From Bdellovibrionales bacterium (GTDB taxonomy: Bacteria; Bdellovibrionota; Bdellovibrionia; Bdellovibrionales; UBA1609): 32,000 nucleotides of DNA. Made by a program: the position numbers and the translations under genes. Below the pieces are notes generated by a model. That model did not search any database and was not told where the DNA came from. It saw only the letters and a list, made by a program, of their open reading frames with translations. Numbering within the stretch: position 1 is the first letter of the stretch; every line of letters begins with the position of its first letter. Of this stretch, positions 8,907-28,271 are shown in pieces. The stretch spans positions 750,001-782,000 of the forward strand of contig OY843585.1 in NCBI GenBank assembly GCA_963692945.1. The letters are read 5' to 3'.

Positions 8907-10187
8907 TTAATCTTGATGAAATTGAGTCGGGATTTCTTTATTGGCTTTAGCTCCTAGTTTTTTAATATTTTCTATTTTTTGTATGAGATTGCCTCGGCCA
9001 GATTCCAATTTATTGATGGCTGAGTCGTAAGAGTCACTTGCTGTTTTAATCCCTTTTTCTATTTTTGTCATATCGTCTAGAAAGCCTACAAATTTATCAT
9101 AAAGTTGTCCTGATTCTTTAGCAATTTGTTCTGCATTTTTGTTTTGTTTTTCTATTTTCCAAATAGAGGCAATGGTTCTAAGAGTAGCATACAAGGTGAT
9201 AGGGCTTACAATGACAATAGATTTTTCCCAAGCCTTGTCAAACAAGCCTTGCTTATTTTGAATCGCAAAAGAAAAAACAGGTTCAACGGGGATGAACATT
9301 AAAACAAAATCAGGGGTTTTAAACTCTTCAAGAGAAGTGGTGTATTCTTTTTGAGATAAATTATTGATATGATTTTTTAAAGAAGTAATGATTTTATTTT
9401 TATAGTCTTCCTTTTTTTCTTTATCTGTTTCTATTTCATAATTTTGATAATGTGTGAAAGAGACTTTAGAATCAATAACGATGTATTTTTTATCTGGTAG
9501 TTTAACAATAACATCAGGTCTTAATTTTTGTCCTTTTTCATTTTTTACATCTAAACCTTCAGATTGCACAAAAAACTCTTCATTTTTTCTAAGTCCTGAT
9601 TTTTCTAAAATATTTTCTAAGAGGATTTCACCCCATTGGCCTTGAGTTTTTGTATTTCCTTGTAGAGCTTGGCTAAGGCTGCGAGTTTCATCTCTCATAT
9701 TTTGATTCATGTCTTTAAAACCTTTTATAGTTTCTTGTAAGAATTTTTTACTTCCTTCAAGACTTTCAATAGATTTTTGAAAACCTGTAATATTTTCTTT
9801 AAGAGGTTTGATGAGATTTTCTATAGATTTCTCTGAATTATCTTGGTAAGTTTTTGTTGTTTCTTTGAAAATTTTTTGAGCCATAGATTCAAATTCCAGC
9901 TTTAGTTTTTGAGCCGTTTCTTCTAAAGTTTGTTTTTTATGTTCCAACTCTCTATCTTTTGTTTTAGATTCTGTTTGAAGTCGTGCATTTTCTTCTATAA
10001 GATTTCGTTCCTTTTCTTTGAATTTGTTAGTTTCAAGTTGTAAAGATTCCAAATCTTTTTTTAAAAAATCATTTTCAATTTCTGTTTTGATAGAGTTTTT
10101 ATTATTAGAAGATGATTTTTTAAAAAAGAGAGTGGCTAGGATAAGTCCTAAGAGAGCGCCAATGATAAGACCTATTAAAAAAGACAT
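8907..10187 (-). CDS. rmuC: DNA recombination protein RmuC
   Basis: It has an N-terminal TM helix and a long coiled coil. The C-terminal nuclease-like region (RPDVIVKLPDKKYIVIDSKV, FVLMFIPVEP) is typical of RmuC. Confidence 0.85.
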   Translation of the reverse strand: MSFLIGLIIGALLGLILATLFFKKSSSNNKNSIKTEIENDFLKKDLESLQLETNKFKEKERNLIEENARLQTESKTKDRELEHKKQTLEETAQKLKLEFESMAQKIFKETTKTYQDNSEKSIENLIKPLKENITGFQKSIESLEGSKKFLQETIKGFKDMNQNMRDETRSLSQALQGNTKTQGQWGEILLENILEKSGLRKNEEFFVQSEGLDVKNEKGQKLRPDVIVKLPDKKYIVIDSKVSFTHYQNYEIETDKEKKEDYKNKIITSLKNHINNLSQKEYTTSLEEFKTPDFVLMFIPVEPVFSFAIQNKQGLFDKAWEKSIVIVSPITLYATLRTIASIWKIEKQNKNAEQIAKESGQLYDKFVGFLDDMTKIEKGIKTASDSYDSAINKLESGRGNLIQKIENIKKLGAKANKEIPTQFHQD

Positions 10188-10225
10188 TTTATAAAATTAA
10201 CTTATTTTTTAGACGATAGCAATTA

Positions 10226-10326
10226 CAAAACTCTCGTCCTTCCCTTTTTATTTTTTGAGATTTTTATCGTAAGAGAGGCACTCTTCAAATCTCATTAAAA
10301 TAAGAGTAGGTAACACTAGAGTTTTG
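10226..10326 (+). repeat. Long-hairpin (LH) repeat element, copy A (partly degenerate), with terminal inverted CAAAACTCT.G / C.AGAGTTTTG
   Basis: The sequence runs CAAAACTCTCG...TATCGTAAGAGAGGCACTCTTCAAATCTCATTAAAATAAGAGTAGG...CACTAGAGTTTTG. The core and right arm match copies at 11175-11318 and 27937-28061. The left arm is decayed. Confidence 0.75.
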
Positions 10327-10373
10327 AAAAAAAATATTTACTTTCCAAGTTTTTTATTTTATTTTTAGTAGGT

Positions 10374-10841
10374 ATGAAAAAAGATGTTTTTTACATGCTT
10401 TCTCCCATAGGGAATTTAGAGATTTCTTTAGAAGGAGATAGGCTTTACTCTATTCAAAAAGATTTGCGACAAACTCGCTCTAAAAAAAGATCTCATTCCA
10501 CTGAAACCAATATTTCTAAACGAGTCAAAAAGCAATTGGAAGAGTATTTTAACTCTAAAAGAGATAAATTTTCTATTCCTTTAGCGAAAAGAGGGACAGA
10601 GTTTCAAAGGCAGGTGTGGAAAATTCTGCAAAAAATTCCCTACAATCAAACCAGAACCTATAAGGATATTTCTTTAAAACTTGGTTTTCAAACTAAAGCT
10701 CGTTCTGTGGGTCAAGCTTGTTCTAGAAATCCTTTTTTGATTGTAGTGCCTTGTCATAGAGTTCTTTCTAAACAAGGTTTAGGAGGATTTGCTTTAGGTT
10801 TAAAAGCTAAAAAAACCTTACTTGCTTTAGAAACTTCATAA
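10374..10841 (+). CDS. ogt: Methylated-DNA--protein-cysteine methyltransferase
   Basis: It has the active-site PCHRV and the helix-turn-helix region YKDIS...ARSVGQACSRNP. It is 155 aa long. Confidence 0.9.
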   Translation: MKKDVFYMLSPIGNLEISLEGDRLYSIQKDLRQTRSKKRSHSTETNISKRVKKQLEEYFNSKRDKFSIPLAKRGTEFQRQVWKILQKIPYNQTRTYKDISLKLGFQTKARSVGQACSRNPFLIVVPCHRVLSKQGLGGFALGLKAKKTLLALETS

Positions 10842-10850
10842 TTTTATGAT

Positions 10851-11198
10851 CCTCTCTCATGCGAAAACCAGCAGTTTTTCTCTAGTTCAAACATAAAACT
10901 TTATTTGCGAAAACCAGCAGTTTTTCTCTAGTTCAAACAATTTGCGAAAACCAGCAGTTTTTCTCTAAGCATACCCTCATGCGAAAACTAGTAGGTTTTC
11001 TCTAAGCATACCCTCATGCGAAAACCAGTAGGTTTTCTCTAAGCATACCCTCATGCGAAAACCAGTAGGTTTTCTCTAAGCATACCCTCATGCGAAAACC
11101 AGCAGTTTTTCTCTAGTTCAAACATAAACCTTTATTTGCGAAAACCAGCAGGTTTTCTCTAGTTCAAACAATTTGCGAAAACCAGTAGGTTTTCTCTA
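10851..11198 (+). repeat. Tandem array of 9 small-hairpin (SH) units, GCGAAAACC-AGYA-G(G/T)TTTTCTCTA, with three recurring linker types
   Basis: The 24-nt cores start at 10861, 10907, 10944, 10981, 11018, 11055, 11092, 11138 and 11175, giving spacings of 46-37-37-37-37-37-46-37 bp. The linkers are GTTCAAACATAAA(A/C)CTTTATTT, GTTCAAACAATTT and AGCATACCCTCAT. Confidence 0.9.
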
Positions 11199-11318
11199 GT
11201 TCAAATCATAAACCTATTAAGTAACTCTTATTTTAATGAGATTTGAAGAGCGTCCCTCTTGCGATGAAAAGCTCGTTAAAATAAGAGTAGGAAATACTTT
11301 AATTGAACTAGAGTTTTG
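11199..11318 (-). repeat. Long-hairpin (LH) repeat element, copy B (inverted relative to copies A and C)
   Basis: The 17-bp stem is 11224-11240 / 11272-11288, with one T:G pair. The 31-nt loop is ATTTGAAGAGCGTCCCTCTTGCGATGAAAAG. It is flanked by CTCTAGTTCAAAT and AATTGAACTAGAG and ends in GAGTTTTG, directly abutting the stop codon at 11319-11321. Confidence 0.85.
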
Positions 11319-13079
11319 TTAATGATTCATTTTCTTCATTAAAGATTTAAAATTTGTTTTAAGAAGTTTTATGTCTTCATTTTGTTTTTTATTTTGTGCT
11401 TTAAGAGATTCGTTTTCTTTTTTTAGAGAAGCCAGTTCTCTTTCTAGTTTTTTATTTGTGGATGCTAATTTTTTTTCTGTTTGAAGTTGTGTCTCTTTTA
11501 GTTTTGCCATTTCTTTTGTAATAAAATCTATAGATTTTGTAAAAGACTCTTTTATCTTTGCAAATGATTTTGTAAGAGCCGACACAGACTCTTTAAGAAA
11601 GTTTAGAGTTTTTGTTGTGGAGCCATAAAATTCTTTAAAAGTTTTTATGATAACAGGGATAAGTCCTTGGTAATTTAAACTTAAAGTCTTTTTTGGATCT
11701 GAACCTTCAGACACTAATTCGGGATACTGTTCTTGAACCTCTTGAGCAATTAAACCTATCTGTTTTGTTTGAACTCTATGTTTGTCTTTCCAGTAAAAAG
11801 TTTTAGGATTTAATTTTAAAAGAGAATGAGTTTGATTTTTTAAATCCTTAATCTTGGTTTTGAGTCGTTTATCAGAGTGATGGGTAACTCCACCGTTTAT
11901 CTTTATATCTCCAGCAATATTAACGAATTTTGTTCCTGACATATTCCCTTTAATAAGATTTCCGATATTAAGTTTATTGCTGGCATCGGTTGCTGATAAT
12001 CTCATACCTCCTCCAATCACAATATTATTGCTTCCTGTAGTAGAACCTGATGGTCCAAATTGCGCATTATCACCTAAAGCAATATTATTATTGCCTATTG
12101 TATTTCTAGATCCTGCCTCATGACCTATAAAAACATTAGATCCTCCATTGTTATCCGCACCAGCTCGTCTACCAAAAAAAGTATTGTAACCTCCGCTGAT
12201 ATTATTTAATCCCGTGTTATAACCTATAAAACTGTTGTAATTTCCTGTATTTACTTCTCCAGCTTTATAACCTACAAAAGTCCCTTCACTGCCACCTGTT
12301 CCAACTTCAAAACCAAAAGCCGTGTGCTTATTTGTACTTGCACCTGTTGTCCCACAACCCACAAGAGTTCGCCCGTCTGAGTCTACCTTGTAACATTCTG
12401 GGTCTATACCGCTTCCGCCTTCAATTTTTCCTCCAATCGCATAACATTTTTTATTATTTACAATTTCTTCCCCAACACCTCCAACAACTTTTATTTTGAT
12501 TTTAATGGGAGCTAAAACAGGAAAAATTTTTTCCTTATCCGTTCCATAATAGACGAATAAATCTAAATATCCATCTCTTGAAGTCCCTCTTACCTCACCC
12601 GCTCTAAGTTCTATTTTTTGGATGGTAAGACCATTGTATTCTTTCCAAGTTTCAAAACCAAAAGGAATATTTGTTGTGCGGTATCTAGTCTTGTGAGGGG
12701 CGGCATTTCTATAAGTTAAGACATTATTTCTATAGAGAGCATAGATGTCTTGTTTTGTGTGTCTAATATCTCTAAAGTTTAAGTTTTTTAATATTAACGA
12801 ACAAGCATTTTGGTAAATACAAGTATCTCCTACATTTTTACCTGGAGGTTTAGGACTGTTTAAGGCATTAGGGGGGCAAGTTTCTGTTTGTTCTAACAAA
12901 TGAATGATATCTTCACTCAGTTCAATAGAATTGCTTTTTTGTTGAACTTTTTTTAAAGATCTCATAAGGTTTACTTGGAATTGAGAAATTCCTAAAATAA
13001 CAATGGTTCCAATAGCAGCTGCTGATAAAACACCAATGAGGGAAAATCCAGAATTATTAAGTTTTGAATAATAAGTCAT
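11319..13079 (-). CDS. Chimeric surface fibre protein: prepilin-like N-terminus, Gly/Asn-rich tail-fibre-like repeats, S74-type intramolecular chaperone domain and a coiled-coil tail
   Basis: The N-terminus MTYYSKLNNSG/FSLIGVLSAAAIGTIVILG resembles a type IV prepilin leader plus hydrophobic helix, with Gly in place of Glu5. Residues ~215-395 carry repeats such as FVGYKAGEVNTGNYNSFIGYNTGLNN..NVFIGHEAGSRNTIGNNNIALGDNA. HH-SDKRLKTKIKDL...IGLIAQEVQEQYPELV...LNYQGLIPV matches the self-cleaving chaperone domain of phage tailspikes and fibres. Confidence 0.7.
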   Translation of the reverse strand: MTYYSKLNNSGFSLIGVLSAAAIGTIVILGISQFQVNLMRSLKKVQQKSNSIELSEDIIHLLEQTETCPPNALNSPKPPGKNVGDTCIYQNACSLILKNLNFRDIRHTKQDIYALYRNNVLTYRNAAPHKTRYRTTNIPFGFETWKEYNGLTIQKIELRAGEVRGTSRDGYLDLFVYYGTDKEKIFPVLAPIKIKIKVVGGVGEEIVNNKKCYAIGGKIEGGSGIDPECYKVDSDGRTLVGCGTTGASTNKHTAFGFEVGTGGSEGTFVGYKAGEVNTGNYNSFIGYNTGLNNISGGYNTFFGRRAGADNNGGSNVFIGHEAGSRNTIGNNNIALGDNAQFGPSGSTTGSNNIVIGGGMRLSATDASNKLNIGNLIKGNMSGTKFVNIAGDIKINGGVTHHSDKRLKTKIKDLKNQTHSLLKLNPKTFYWKDKHRVQTKQIGLIAQEVQEQYPELVSEGSDPKKTLSLNYQGLIPVIIKTFKEFYGSTTKTLNFLKESVSALTKSFAKIKESFTKSIDFITKEMAKLKETQLQTEKKLASTNKKLERELASLKKENESLKAQNKKQNEDIKLLKTNFKSLMKKMNH

Positions 13080-13250
13080 TCTTAAAAGATCCTTTATCTT
13101 TAAATTTTAGCATATTTTTCTATTTAAAAAATAAATATCTGTAAAATTATATTACATGTGTTATTTTATGTTAAAGTATCAGAAATAATCAATAAGAAGT
13201 GCTAATGTTTAGAGGTTCCTTTTTCTAAAACATTGTGAAAAAGAGATTTA

Positions 13251-13976
13251 TTATTGAGATTCAGTTAAGGTTGCACCAATAATACCACAAGCGATTCTTT
13301 CTCCAGAATTTCCTGTTGGTTGAGTTTTTAAATCATCTTCTTTTGCATGTACAATAACAGAACGACCTAAAAATTTTCTAAAGTGTCCTGGTAGAACTTT
13401 ATCATAGAGAGCTTCACCTTTTGAATCAGAAGATAGATTTCCTAAATCTCCTGCATGCTTTTCTGGACTAAGAGGGCCTCCATGTAGAGAAGGGGTTCTC
13501 TTTTTATTGAAAAAACTTTTTTTATGTCTATGAGGATGAACTATTAAATGCCCTCCTGCTTTTAAGGCTTTATCTGAACAATCTCCAAATTCATGAACAT
13601 GAAATCCAAACTTTTGATTCGCTTTCAAATTTGTGATTTTTGCTCTTACTCTTACTTTTTTATGATCTGCTTTTTCAAAAATCACAAAACCTTTTGGGCC
13701 TCCAGTATTCACTGGTGTTACATAGGCTTTTCCAGAAAGACCATTTGAGCCACAACAAGATTTTTTAGAATGAGAGCAAGACTTTTTGGAATGAGAGCAA
13801 GATTTTTTAGAATGAGAACAAGACTTTTTAGAATGAGAACAAGATTTTTTAGAATGCTTATGATGTTGTTTGTGATCGGAGTGTTTTTGAGTAGAATGCT
13901 TGTAGGTAGAGTAACAACTCACAAGAAAGGAAAGAGAAAATAATAAACTGGCAATAAAGAAAGACTTTTGAAACAT
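13251..13976 (-). CDS. sodC: Cu,Zn superoxide dismutase lipoprotein with an N-terminal His/Cys-rich tandem-repeat extension
   Basis: It has lipobox LVSC and the SodC motifs GFHVHEFGDCS, GGH, HAGDLGN, VIVHAKEDD and GNSGERIACGII. The N-terminus carries KHSTQKHSDHKQHHKH followed by five SKKSCSH repeats. Confidence 0.9.
   Translation of the reverse strand: MFQKSFFIASLLFSLSFLVSCYSTYKHSTQKHSDHKQHHKHSKKSCSHSKKSCSHSKKSCSHSKKSCSHSKKSCCGSNGLSGKAYVTPVNTGGPKGFVIFEKADHKKVRVRAKITNLKANQKFGFHVHEFGDCSDKALKAGGHLIVHPHRHKKSFFNKKRTPSLHGGPLSPEKHAGDLGNLSSDSKGEALYDKVLPGHFRKFLGRSVIVHAKEDDLKTQPTGNSGERIACGIIGATLTESQ
13755..13856 (-). repeat. In-frame 21-bp tandem repeat, about 5 copies, encoding (SKKSCSH)n inside sodC
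   Basis: The plus strand reads ACAAGA(T/C)TTTTT(A/G)GAATGAGA(G/A) reiterated with a 21-bp period. Confidence 0.85.
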
Positions 13977-19980: not shown

Positions 19981-20421
19981 ATGGACTATCAAAAACGAAA
20001 GATTCATAATTTAGAAGAGCTTAAAATTTTTTCTAAAGATATTGTTCAAGAGATCAAAAAACCTCAACTGCTTTTGATGCAAGGCCCTTTAGGTGTTGGA
20101 AAAACACAATGTGTTCATTTTATAAATGAATGTTTTGGTGTTTCTAAAAAAGACATTTGCTCTCCTAGTTTCTCCATTATAAATACCTATAAAAGTCCAA
20201 AATCCATTATATCTCATATTGATTTTTTTCGTCTTCAAGATAAGCAGGATTTAGAATCTACAGGCATTTGGGATGTTTTTCTTGATTCCCAAATTGTTTT
20301 TATAGAGTGGGCTGATCTTTTTCAAGTGCAATGGCCAGATCATTGGAATAAATTGTTTTTATTTTTTGAGTTCTCCAAAGAGGAAGAAGATGTGAGATGG
20401 ATTAAGTGGGGAAGTTGTTAA
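19981..20421 (+). CDS. tsaE: tRNA threonylcarbamoyladenosine (t6A) biosynthesis ATPase TsaE
   Basis: It has the P-loop GPLGVGKT, SPSFSIINTY, H.D.FRL and IEWA motifs and is 146 aa long. Its stop shares the tetranucleotide TTAA with the convergent gene's stop. Confidence 0.85.
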   Translation: MDYQKRKIHNLEELKIFSKDIVQEIKKPQLLLMQGPLGVGKTQCVHFINECFGVSKKDICSPSFSIINTYKSPKSIISHIDFFRLQDKQDLESTGIWDVFLDSQIVFIEWADLFQVQWPDHWNKLFLFFEFSKEEEDVRWIKWGSC

Positions 20422-21989
20422 GCCGCTAATTTTTTAGTGTTTGATTTATTAAAGTGATCTAAAACTTGCTGTTCTATTTTTTTAACGGATTGTTTATCTA
20501 AGTTGGTCATAGAAATTCCTATAAAAACAAACTTTAATTTATTCATTTCATCTTGAATAGGAATAGCTGTTACATGTTTTGGATATTGAGACCAGCCGAT
20601 ACTATTAAAGAATTTTTGATTAACCTCTGTATCTACAACAAAACCATGATAGGAATGTCCCTTTCCTACAATTTTAAAAATAGAAAAATCGTTTAAGTTG
20701 GCTGCTGTTTTTGTTTCCATTTCAGGTTTTATTTCAATACGACCTGACCAATTTTGAAAGAGTAAATCGTTATTTCTACTTTTCAAAATAAGAGATCCTA
20801 TAAATTGAGATTTGACTTGGTTAAAAAAGTCATCATGATTTTCTTTGTATTTAATAGTAAAATTGGTTTTTGTTAAATTTGTAATTTCTGGGTTTGTTTT
20901 TGTAATTTCTGGGTTTGTTTTTTCAGAAGAGAGAGTCACTTTAGGAGGTGCTTCTTTTTGAATAGGCTTTGGAGTTATTTTTGTGATTTCTAGGTTTGTT
21001 TTTGTAATTTCTGGGTTTATTTTTTCAGAAGAGAGAGTCACTTTAGGAGGTGCTTCTTTTTGAATAGGCTTTGGGGTTAAATTTGTAATTTCTAGGTTTG
21101 TTTTTGTAATTTCTGGGTTTGTTTTTTCAGAAGAGAGAGTCGCTTTAGGAGGTGCTTCTTTTTGAATAGGCTTTGGGCTTACTTTTATAATTTCTGAATC
21201 TGTTTTTTCAGAAATTGTTTTTGGATTTAAAATGATTTCTTTTTGTTTAGATTCATTTTTTAGTAAAGGGTTTTTTATTATAGAAGTGATGTGATCTAAG
21301 AAATTTTTAGATTTTGTAGATTTGATGGTATTTGTTTTTTTTGTACTACTCATTTGAGAGTACTCCGCTTTTTTGATAAAATCGTCTTCTTCTGAAGGTG
21401 TATCTATTGTTATACCTTTCATATAGAAAGGCGTAGATTCTCTTGTTTGATGACTTCTTTCAGGATCGGTGCTTTCATCTGGAGAAAAAGAGATACGTTC
21501 TTCCTCTATTTCAGGTAAAGAAGTGTCATTATTTAAGGAAGTAGGTGCTTTTATAGGGATTTCTTTCTCTGTAGATTTTTGAAAGTCTTTTATAGATTTC
21601 CAATGCATACGGAGAGCTAAATCTGTTACAAGCACAAAACGATGCTTAAAAGACCAAGACTTATGGTTTTTAGGTTTTTCTAGACAAGCTATAAAAACAG
21701 TATCTTCCCATATATAAATAGGTGCTATTTCTTCATTCCATCTGTGTAGATTTTTTACTTTACTCCACTGGCTTTGATTCATTAAATTTTGTTCAAAGAA
21801 AGTATTTTGGACAATGGGTATATTGTAAAAATTGGAAGCCCAGTCAAAGTACTTCTTTCTATCAATGATTTTTTGAGTTAAAGACCAAAGTAGAAAACTT
21901 TGGTTATTATTTGATTGATTCCAATCTTCTAGGTTTTTTTCAGAAACATTTAAATCAATTGTCCAAGCATAATCTTTAATAGGATTCAT
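20418..21989 (-). CDS. Hypothetical protein with a central 3 x 34-aa Pro/Lys/Glu/Thr-rich tandem repeat; the N-terminus is faintly T2SSE_N/MshEN-like
   Basis: This is a long ORF of 523 aa. The repeat PKPIQKEAPPKVTLSSEKTNPEITKTNLEITNLT occurs three times. The globular N- and C-terminal domains are not confidently recognised. Confidence 0.6.
   Translation of the reverse strand: MNPIKDYAWTIDLNVSEKNLEDWNQSNNNQSFLLWSLTQKIIDRKKYFDWASNFYNIPIVQNTFFEQNLMNQSQWSKVKNLHRWNEEIAPIYIWEDTVFIACLEKPKNHKSWSFKHRFVLVTDLALRMHWKSIKDFQKSTEKEIPIKAPTSLNNDTSLPEIEEERISFSPDESTDPERSHQTRESTPFYMKGITIDTPSEEDDFIKKAEYSQMSSTKKTNTIKSTKSKNFLDHITSIIKNPLLKNESKQKEIILNPKTISEKTDSEIIKVSPKPIQKEAPPKATLSSEKTNPEITKTNLEITNLTPKPIQKEAPPKVTLSSEKINPEITKTNLEITKITPKPIQKEAPPKVTLSSEKTNPEITKTNPEITNLTKTNFTIKYKENHDDFFNQVKSQFIGSLILKSRNNDLLFQNWSGRIEIKPEMETKTAANLNDFSIFKIVGKGHSYHGFVVDTEVNQKFFNSIGWSQYPKHVTAIPIQDEMNKLKFVFIGISMTNLDKQSVKKIEQQVLDHFNKSNTKKLAA
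20871..21178 (-). repeat. 102-bp in-frame tandem repeat, 3 copies, inside the 523-aa ORF, with an internal (N[PL]EITKT) sub-repeat
   Basis: The marker TCAGAAGAGAGAGTC(A/G)CTTTAGGAGGTGCTTCTTTTTGAATAGGCTTTGG recurs with its C at 20924, 21026 and 21128. The period is exactly 102 bp. Confidence 0.9.
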
Positions 21990-27894: not shown

Positions 27895-27936
27895 GATAAA
27901 GGATTTTTACCAGTGAATAAGGTTTTAAGCAAATAA

Positions 27937-28061
27937 CAAAACTCTAGTTCAAACAAGTATTTCCTACTCTTATTTTAATGAGCTTTTCATCGCAAGAGGG
28001 ACGCTCTTCAAATCTCATTAAAATAAGAGTTACTTAATAGGCTTATTGTTTGAACTAGAGA
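27937..28061 (+). repeat. Long-hairpin (LH) repeat element, copy C
   Basis: The outer arms are CTCTAGTTCAAAC (27942-27954) and GTTTGAACTAGAG (28049-28061). The 17-bp perfect stem is 27966-27982 / 28014-28030, with a 31-nt loop. The region 27937-28080 is the near-identical reverse complement of 11175-11318. Confidence 0.9.
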
Positions 28062-28128
28062 AAACCTTCTGGTTTTTGCACCTGACTTATAGAACACTGG
28101 CAAAAAACAGAGTTTTTCTCTAGCTCAC
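28049..28128. repeat. Two SH units in head-to-head orientation between LH copies C and D
   Basis: GTTTGAACTAGAGAAAACCTTCTGGTTTTTGCA is a reversed unit. A 17-bp centre follows, and then TGGCAAAAAACAGAGTTTTTCTCTAGCTCAC, a degenerate forward unit. Confidence 0.7.
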
Positions 28129-28228
28129 TAAGTAAGAATCCTTTTCTTTTTAGGTGTTTGAGGAGTATCCCTCTCACGACGAAAATCTCCTAAAAAGAAA
28201 AGGATATTATAGTTGAACGAGAGTTTTG
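28118..28228 (-). repeat. Long-hairpin (LH) repeat element, copy D (divergent stem, conserved loop core)
   Basis: The 17-bp perfect stem is ATCCTTTTCTTTTTAGG (28138-28154) / CCTAAAAAGAAAAGGAT (28189-28205). The 34-nt loop TGTTTGAGGAGTATCCCTCTCACGACGAAAATCT is related to the copy B loop. The element ends in GTTGAACGAGAGTTTTG. Confidence 0.8.
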
Positions 28229-28271
28229 TATTGACTTTGATTTCTGTAAAAGTCATTTTTAAAACAGTTTT

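Follow-up and report, generated by a model that had tools for sequence, protein, structure and literature searches.

Our analysis of a 32,000-nt stretch of contig OY843585.1 from a Bdellovibrionales bacterium (the window, to which all coordinates refer; GC ~32%) suggests that the divergent spacer between an M50 protease gene (start 27894, minus strand) and an acyl-CoA dehydrogenase gene (ACAD; start 28272, plus strand) houses two members of a family of palindromic interspersed repeats. This family is probably clade-specific, non-coding, modular and selfish, similar in kind to miniature inverted-repeat transposable elements (MITEs), REPINs and BOX elements. It is undescribed and fits no named family, while the kind of element is well known. 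An earlier note had treated this composite palindrome as a single unusual structure; instead, it consists of two members of a dispersed modular family with other copies at 10226-10326 and 10856-11321. The dispersed copies, a young pair, one gain, one decay, inverted ends, variable modules and the lack of coding together are consistent with a selfish DNA repeat, the hairpins of which are probably important at the level of DNA.

Related units at three intergenic loci

The window contains nine occurrences of the box CTCTAGTTCAAAC, compared to 1.7 expected, and the 30-nt loop core of one of the hairpins has two exact occurrences where none is expected, the second being located at 11242-11271. A search for copies, which had been proposed earlier, returned related units at two further intergenic sites of the window, and the composite was absent from the orthologous spacer of three relatives. 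In total, the window contains three family loci, all of them intergenic (10226-10326, 10856-11321 and 27934-28232).

A full unit starts with a small hairpin (GAAAACC-N4-GGTTTTC), followed by the box CTCTAGTTCAAAC, a linker, a 17-bp A/T-rich stem arm, the 30-nt loop core, the other stem arm, a second linker, the inverted box GTTTGAACTAGAG and a terminal TTTTG(T)TA. The loop core has the consensus TTTGARGAG..CTCT..CGA..AAAA and bears a mini-hairpin of 4-5 bp of its own, and the full unit self-folds into one long hairpin. The units measure 101-148 bp, and all of them have inverted ends and fold strongly onto themselves. The number of small-hairpin modules is 0, 1 or 9 depending on the locus. Gene contexts differ as well, being divergent for element A and for the composite and convergent for unit B, and copies occur in both orientations (Table 1).

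Table 1 Position and make-up of the repeat units and their parts within the window
Feature	Position	Strand	Description
Element A	10226..10326	-	Solo long-hairpin unit without small hairpin, in the RmuC-MGMT spacer; ends CAAAACTCT / AGAGTTTTG
Tandem array	10856..11210	+	Nine small-hairpin units in the same orientation (TGCGAAAACC-AGYA-GKTTTTC)
Unit B	11174..11321	+	Last small hairpin of the array, box, long hairpin, terminus ...CTAGAGTTTTGTTA
Composite	27934..28232	.	Two family units head to head; stands in for ~30-36 bp that are not conserved in the relatives
Unit L	27937..28080	-	From the outer end inward: terminus CAAAACTCTAGTTCAAAC, long hairpin C, box, small hairpin
Long hairpin C	27966..28030	-	Stem 27966-27982 / 28014-28030, 17/17 pairs; 31-nt loop
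Inner box and small hairpin of unit L	28046..28080	-	Box TTGTTTGAACTAGAG, then small hairpin AAAACC-TTCT-GGTTTT, then TGCA
Reversed small hairpin	28061-28076		
Centre	28081..28097	.	17 bp, CCTGACTTATAGAACAC, between units L and R
Unit R	28098..28229	+	Divergent subfamily; degenerate small hairpin, box CTCTAGCTCAC, long hairpin D, terminus GTTGAACGAGAGTTTTG
Degenerate forward small hairpin	28103-28117		
Long hairpin D	28138..28205	+	Stem 28138-28154 / 28189-28205, 17/17 pairs; 34-nt loop

Within the family, unit L of the composite and 11178-11321 within unit B share 94.4% identity across 144 nt. Their resemblance breaks off exactly after ...GAGTTTTGTTA, and the flanks beyond this point are unrelated. 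Unit L is therefore a recent copy and a young unit. This qualifies the previous argument that a simple recent duplication would not produce the observed pattern, which holds for hairpin C compared to hairpin D, but not for unit L itself.

The remaining units illustrate how the modules vary. In element A, one arm and half of the loop are of the B/C type (27 of 27 positions identical), and the other arm together with the terminus CGAGAGTTTTGTA is nearer to the D type; the element may thus be a mosaic that arose by recombination or gene conversion between copies. The tandem array upstream of the long hairpin of unit B is built with three types of linkers, which results in periods of 37 and 46 nt, and includes a higher-order duplication of 231 bp. 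As no spacers intervene between its units, we ruled out that the 37-nt tandem repeats represent a CRISPR array. The long stem of unit B itself (11224-11240 / 11272-11288) contains a single G.T pair.

Structure and folding of the composite

The two perfect 17-bp stems of hairpins C and D, their loops of 31 and 34 nt, the inverted ends and the centre were all found where the earlier note had placed them. The two hairpins are oppositely oriented, so that the left half of the composite is an inverted, ~70%-similar version of the right half, and the two small hairpins point toward each other with 17 bp between them. The loop of hairpin C contains the 30-nt core with a 5-bp mini-hairpin (AAGAG/CTCTT). 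The helix of hairpin D amounts to 18 of 19 pairs if the G28156-C28187 pair past a T.T mismatch is counted. Further pairing is provided by the outer inverted ends CAAAACTCTAGTTCAAAC and GTTGAACGAGAGTTTTG (27936-27952 / 28213-28229; 16 of 17 pairs) and by the two boxes of unit L (27942-27956 / 28046-28060; 15 of 15 pairs). The inner box and small hairpin at 28046-28080 match the small-hairpin units at 10860-11198 by 91-94%. Local alignment of the 17-bp centre to the corresponding spacers of relatives did not score better than shuffled sequences (P 0.12-0.54).

Predicted folding of the 299-nt region is strong on both strands. As RNA, it reached -101 kcal/mol on the plus strand (z -10.0) and -105.5 kcal/mol on the minus strand (z -9.5), compared to about -58 kcal/mol for dinucleotide shuffles, none of which (0 of 200) folded as well. 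The minus strand of the whole composite can fold into one hairpin, and each half alone forms one long hairpin consisting of the outer box stem, the inner 17-bp stem and the apical 4-5-bp mini-hairpin. As single-stranded DNA, unit L without its small hairpin (27937-28060) was predicted to fold with -29 to -30 kcal/mol (z -9.4 and -9.9), and unit R with -22.5 to -23 kcal/mol (z -4.5 and -4.7). The composite is non-coding, as the overlapping open reading frames (ORFs) of 40 and 42 aa are merely mechanical, and a scan called neither promoter-like nor terminator-like sites in or around it.

Gain and decay at orthologous sites

The composite was gained in the lineage of the window, as the same spacer is short in three relatives and its flanks can still be aligned. 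The M50-ACAD spacer spans 377 bp in the window compared to 117, 117 and 108 bp in the relatives L003, L004 and L005, in which the gene order is conserved (the intergenic lengths in L004, as in L016, require care due to apparent frameshift errors). The ACAD protein assigns the window to a small-genome relative of Bdellovibrio, and its closest non-identical homologs share 89, 88 and 80% identity with it. Both flanks of the composite, 27895-27933 and 28230-28271, align to all three relatives, including the TTGACT just to its right, and the ~297 bp of the composite take the place of a stretch of 30-36 bp that is not conserved in the relatives.

Possible core promoter elements are present in both conserved flanks, namely TTGCTT-N17-TAAAAA next to M50 and TTGACT next to ACAD; the promoter scan called neither of them. 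No more than 2-3 nt separate the ends of the composite from these two -35-like hexamers. In L004 and L016, many genes are fragmented (FtsH, PGM, ScpA/B and MnmA are in pieces), which looks like frameshift errors of a low-coverage or long-read assembly rather than real pseudogenes.

A different picture emerged at the site of element A. Here, the RmuC-MGMT spacer of the relative L082 contains CAAAACCCTAGTTCAAG, the small hairpin CGAAAAAGTTGGTTTTTC and GCTAGAGTTTTTAG, and that of L015 contains CAAAAACCCTAGTTCAAGAG. The long hairpin is not retained in these remnants of L082 and L015, whose predicted folds scored z values of +0.8, -1.2 and -1.9. Since decayed remnants are present at the orthologous spacer of two relatives, the family is older than the host species and decays in place. 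Young copies were found in the genome of the window alone among the sequences compared: blastn of ~130 kb of relatives' DNA gave no units apart from the RmuC-MGMT remnants, and a scan of ~115 kb of relatives' DNA gave no analogous long hairpins.

The segment in which element A and the array reside, from RmuC to the Cu/Zn superoxide dismutase SodC (10188-13250), is variable among the relatives L014, L015, L016 and L082. In the window it comprises element A, the MGMT gene, the repeat array and a gene for a fiber-like protein of 586 aa that has an S74 'chaperone of endosialidase' domain at its C-terminus. RmuC and SodC are directly adjacent in L014, separated by MGMT alone in L082 and by other genes in L015 and L016. 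The repeats are thus placed at the joints of the variable segment. Downstream of MGMT, L016 carries a different tandem duplication of ~59 bp (9286-9441; TTTGATATAGATTTAATTTCT...AGGAAGTGATTATTTTTTT, twice), which indicates that relatives have intergenic repeats of their own at this variable spot.

Compensated changes in the stems

Both long stems of the composite are perfect and yet differ in sequence; therefore, some process holds the arms complementary during divergence. The extent of compensation depends on the register in which the two are compared. Compared stem to stem, hairpins C and D differ at 8 of 17 pairs, all of them compensated, in line with the earlier note. If the comparison is anchored at the loop core, however, the helix of D reads as a G-C pair, a T.T mismatch and 17 pairs, and six pairs distinguish C from D, of which five are compensated (T-A to G-C, A-T to T-A, A-T to C-G, C-G to T-A and A-T to C-G) and one is not. 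Loop-core anchoring is the more parsimonious choice; a MAFFT alignment sets D one column out of register. The loop cores of C and D, which had been described as conserved, are indeed better conserved than the stems (23% divergence compared to 30-47%), but they differ at 7 of 30 positions and are not invariant. The small hairpin of unit R also shows one compensated pair, C-G to A-T, and an uncompensated C.T is present in four tandem copies. The stem of element A has decayed and pairs at 12 of 17 positions when set in the register that gives C full pairing, showing that stem pairing is not kept at every locus.

From the compensated stems, selection on a folded nucleic acid had been deduced. The arms are kept complementary, but this pattern has routes other than selection, and element A has decayed. 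Compensatory changes are common in REPIN hairpins (PMC3116915), and template switching between the arms of a palindrome creates and maintains hairpins and yields the same compensated pattern (PMC8794818). Such quasipalindrome correction is a serious alternative or contributor with regard to the perfect stems. If it kept the stems perfect in place of selection, which we regard as unlikely, the repeat family would stand, and the covariation would be silent on function. Apart from the C-G to T-A change, the compensated pairs in the core-anchored register (four of the five) are transversion pairs. As these cannot pass via G.U or G.T, a one-step copy from arm to arm is attractive. Moreover, the helix of D is shifted in register relative to that of C, suggesting events larger than single-base changes, and the stems are low-complexity A/T runs that are prone to slippage. 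On the other hand, element A and the remnants in the relatives have lost their pairing, so correction of the arms is not automatic at every locus. The mechanics of template switching alone also do not predict that the loop is better conserved than the stem, and the small hairpin seems to have changed in two steps, with C.T in four copies and then A-T in unit R.

DNA hairpins compared to structured RNA or a host signal

A second explanation would be that the long hairpins are structured RNAs, either small RNAs or cis-acting modules, in which the 30-nt loop serves as the binding site for a protein or target and the stems need only pair. The combination of compensated stems and a conserved loop as well as the strong predicted RNA folds would be in line with this function. 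In addition, the two single-base defects in stems of B-type units, at position 11275 (long stem of B) and position 10987 (a small hairpin), would both read as G.U in a forward-strand transcript, which is a weak indication with n = 2, and copy B lies in a convergent 3' region that is probably transcribed. The genomic evidence points the other way, and we consider this explanation very unlikely. Two of the three loci are divergent and one is convergent, copies occur in both orientations, and promoter- or terminator-like signals were not found in or around the composite. Furthermore, the composite is absent in three relatives, and the orthologous site of element A decays. The structured-RNA option raised in the earlier note is accordingly unsupported, and the alternative it offered, a DNA hairpin of the REP-like kind, appears to be the better fit.

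The database searches gave a corresponding picture. At Rfam gathering thresholds, a tRNA elsewhere in the window passed and nothing else; in E-value mode, both loci returned sub-threshold, generic miRNA-like hairpins, the best with 30 bits compared to a threshold of 249. This agrees with the previous statement that the element belongs to no described RNA family. Among 185,579 species representative genomes, the loop core had two matches, of which the one read (L001) has no flanking palindrome and the other (L002) was not inspected. A relaxed version of the loop core gave 65 matches in JGI metagenomes, none of them flanked by a stem of more than 6 bp. Neither source thus yielded a true copy of the loop core, with one of the two genome matches inspected. 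The small-hairpin pattern had no match in metagenome contigs, the 17-mer of the box had eight single matches in viral contigs, which is about chance level and which were not inspected, and blastn against plasmid and phage collections returned no match.

Least probable in our view is that the repeats are a DNA signal adopted by the host, such as an array of sites bound by a regulatory or nucleoid protein, an insulator that separates divergent promoters or a cruciform-forming site. The composite does lie between conserved blocks upstream of both genes, with TTGACT immediately to its right, the small-hairpin module occurs in a regular tandem array, and repeats such as BOX influence the expression of neighboring genes in other bacteria (PMC3049150); however, relatives have the same gene pair without the composite, the contexts vary between copies, no protein partner or motif was identified, and nothing sets such a signal apart from a tolerated insertion.

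Resemblance to known repeat systems

By analogy, REPINs may be regarded as the closest functional counterpart of the family and BOX elements as the closest architectural one. Like REPs and REPINs, which are mobilized by RAYT transposases (Y1, IS200/IS605-like), the repeats are short, non-coding, extragenic palindromes. As in REPINs, inverted paired units fold as a long hairpin in single-stranded DNA, the recognition parts are conserved and pairing is the main constraint on the remainder, compensatory changes are frequent (PMC3116915), and singlets and old copies decay. REP systems comprise tens to hundreds of copies and one RAYT gene with REPs on its flanks, whereas no transposase gene was identified in the window. 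The repeats differ from REPs in the sequences next to the small hairpin GAAAACC-N4-GGTTTTC, which are TGC and TCTAG, with no adjacent GTAG/GTGG (the GT[AG]G-type tetranucleotide at the 5' side of REPs). Two further differences to REPINs are the same-orientation tandem arrays of small hairpins and the extra 17-bp stem with a conserved loop of 30 nt that the units of the window carry.

The BOX elements of Streptococcus (boxA-boxB(n)-boxC) are modular, with a tandem inner module of variable number (PMC3049150). The likeness consists in a composite repeat with mutually pairing terminal modules and an inner tandem module that forms an intergenic stem-loop and is confined to one bacterial group (PMC3049150). 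However, BOX elements are found in another phylum, and the likeness put forward here is one of architecture. In the window, the tandem module lies outside the long hairpin and not between the terminal modules, and the core consists of a perfect, long stem inside the unit, capped by a conserved loop.

With MITEs such as the Correia elements of Neisseria, RUP and ERIC, the family shares non-coding units of 100-150 bp with terminal inverted repeats, their dispersal in intergenic regions (three loci in the 32 kb of the window), and presence or absence at orthologous sites, as observed at the M50-ACAD spacer. In contrast to these, no clear duplication of TA or another target is apparent, the flanks being TA/TAA at one end and TA/TTA/AA at the opposite end; no matching insertion sequence is known, and the terminal repeats are not part of the internal palindrome.

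Integron attC sites are likewise recombination sites that are recognized as folded single-strand hairpins and are more conserved in structure than in sequence, and the GTTGAAC in the right box of unit R fits GTTRRRY. We rejected this assignment on context and regard the fit of this one box as coincidental: the window has no integrase or cassette array, the neighbors are housekeeping genes in conserved order, and the left boxes do not fit RYYYAAC.

A search of the literature on Bdellovibrio and miniature inverted-repeat elements revealed no described interspersed palindromic repeats of Bdellovibrionota.

Possible mode of spread

If the composite and its relatives in the window are selfish repeats, as we consider probable, the units would spread by copying of a folded single strand at the level of DNA. 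A transposase or HUH/Y1-type enzyme acting in trans would read the loop and the boxes by sequence and the stems by shape. Because stems read by shape alone need only pair, this would account for perfect stems with drifting sequence. Copies that are no longer mobilized, such as element A and the remnants in the relatives, would then lose their pairing. The small-hairpin module may grow in tandem by slippage or unequal recombination, and template switching from arm to arm probably helps to restore perfect palindromes.

A more specific version of this mechanism is conceivable, if doubtful. The long hairpin with its 30-nt loop may be the recognition module of an undescribed single-strand-specific enzyme, such as a Y1/HUH transposase or a recombinase. 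The host would then carry a REPIN-like replicator that is active, inherited vertically and built on a new architecture, in which tandem small hairpins are combined with a loop-bearing long hairpin. To our knowledge, no such replicator system has been reported from Bdellovibrionota.

Several observations weigh against a selfish, spreading repeat family. The copies were counted in 32 kb of a 1.56-Mb genome, where they occupy three loci, and the covariation rests on two independent stem lineages. A target-site duplication is not clear, as the termini read ..TA/TAA followed by CAAAAC at one end and GTTTTG followed by T(T)A or AA at the other. The M50-ACAD spacer does not provide a clean pair of empty and filled sites, since ~30-36 bp of the relatives' spacer are missing. 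Remnants were found at one site in ~130 kb of relatives' DNA, so that an element retained by the host rather than a spreading one is also possible. Finally, no transposase or RAYT was identified in the window, of which 11 ORFs were assessed by Pfam and the others by the gene order shared with relatives; the relatives' genes used for this purpose carry no transposase domain.

If confirmed genome-wide, the repeats would add a family to Bdellovibrionota and indicate that even a genome of 1.56 Mb tolerates such elements and has recently gained them. The family could serve as a marker for strain typing and as a small test case in which perfect hairpins with changing sequence are attributed either to selection on a mobilization intermediate or to template switching. 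Compensated stems with a conserved core are already known from REPINs, and the family does not by itself open a long-standing question.

Other repeats in the window

Three further repeats lie within coding regions. A 20-nt inverted repeat with 95% complementarity (TTTTTTAAAAAATCATTTTC / GAAGATGATTTTTTAAAAAA; 10057-10127) is located in the 5' end of the RmuC coding region and is not part of the repeat family. The 5' part of the SodC ORF (13251-13976, minus strand) contains six tandem copies of a 21-nt unit (CAAGAYTTTTTRGAATGAGAR; 13735-13881), which implies a peptide repeat of seven residues; SodC has 241 aa in the window compared to 173 aa in L014 and 227 aa in L082. Lastly, a 102-bp tandem repeat with at least three copies that are 92-93% identical (20872-21207) occurs in a 523-aa ORF (20418-21989, minus strand). 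As the counterparts of this ORF comprise 421 aa in L003 and 487 aa in L004, its product looks like a length-variable repeat protein.

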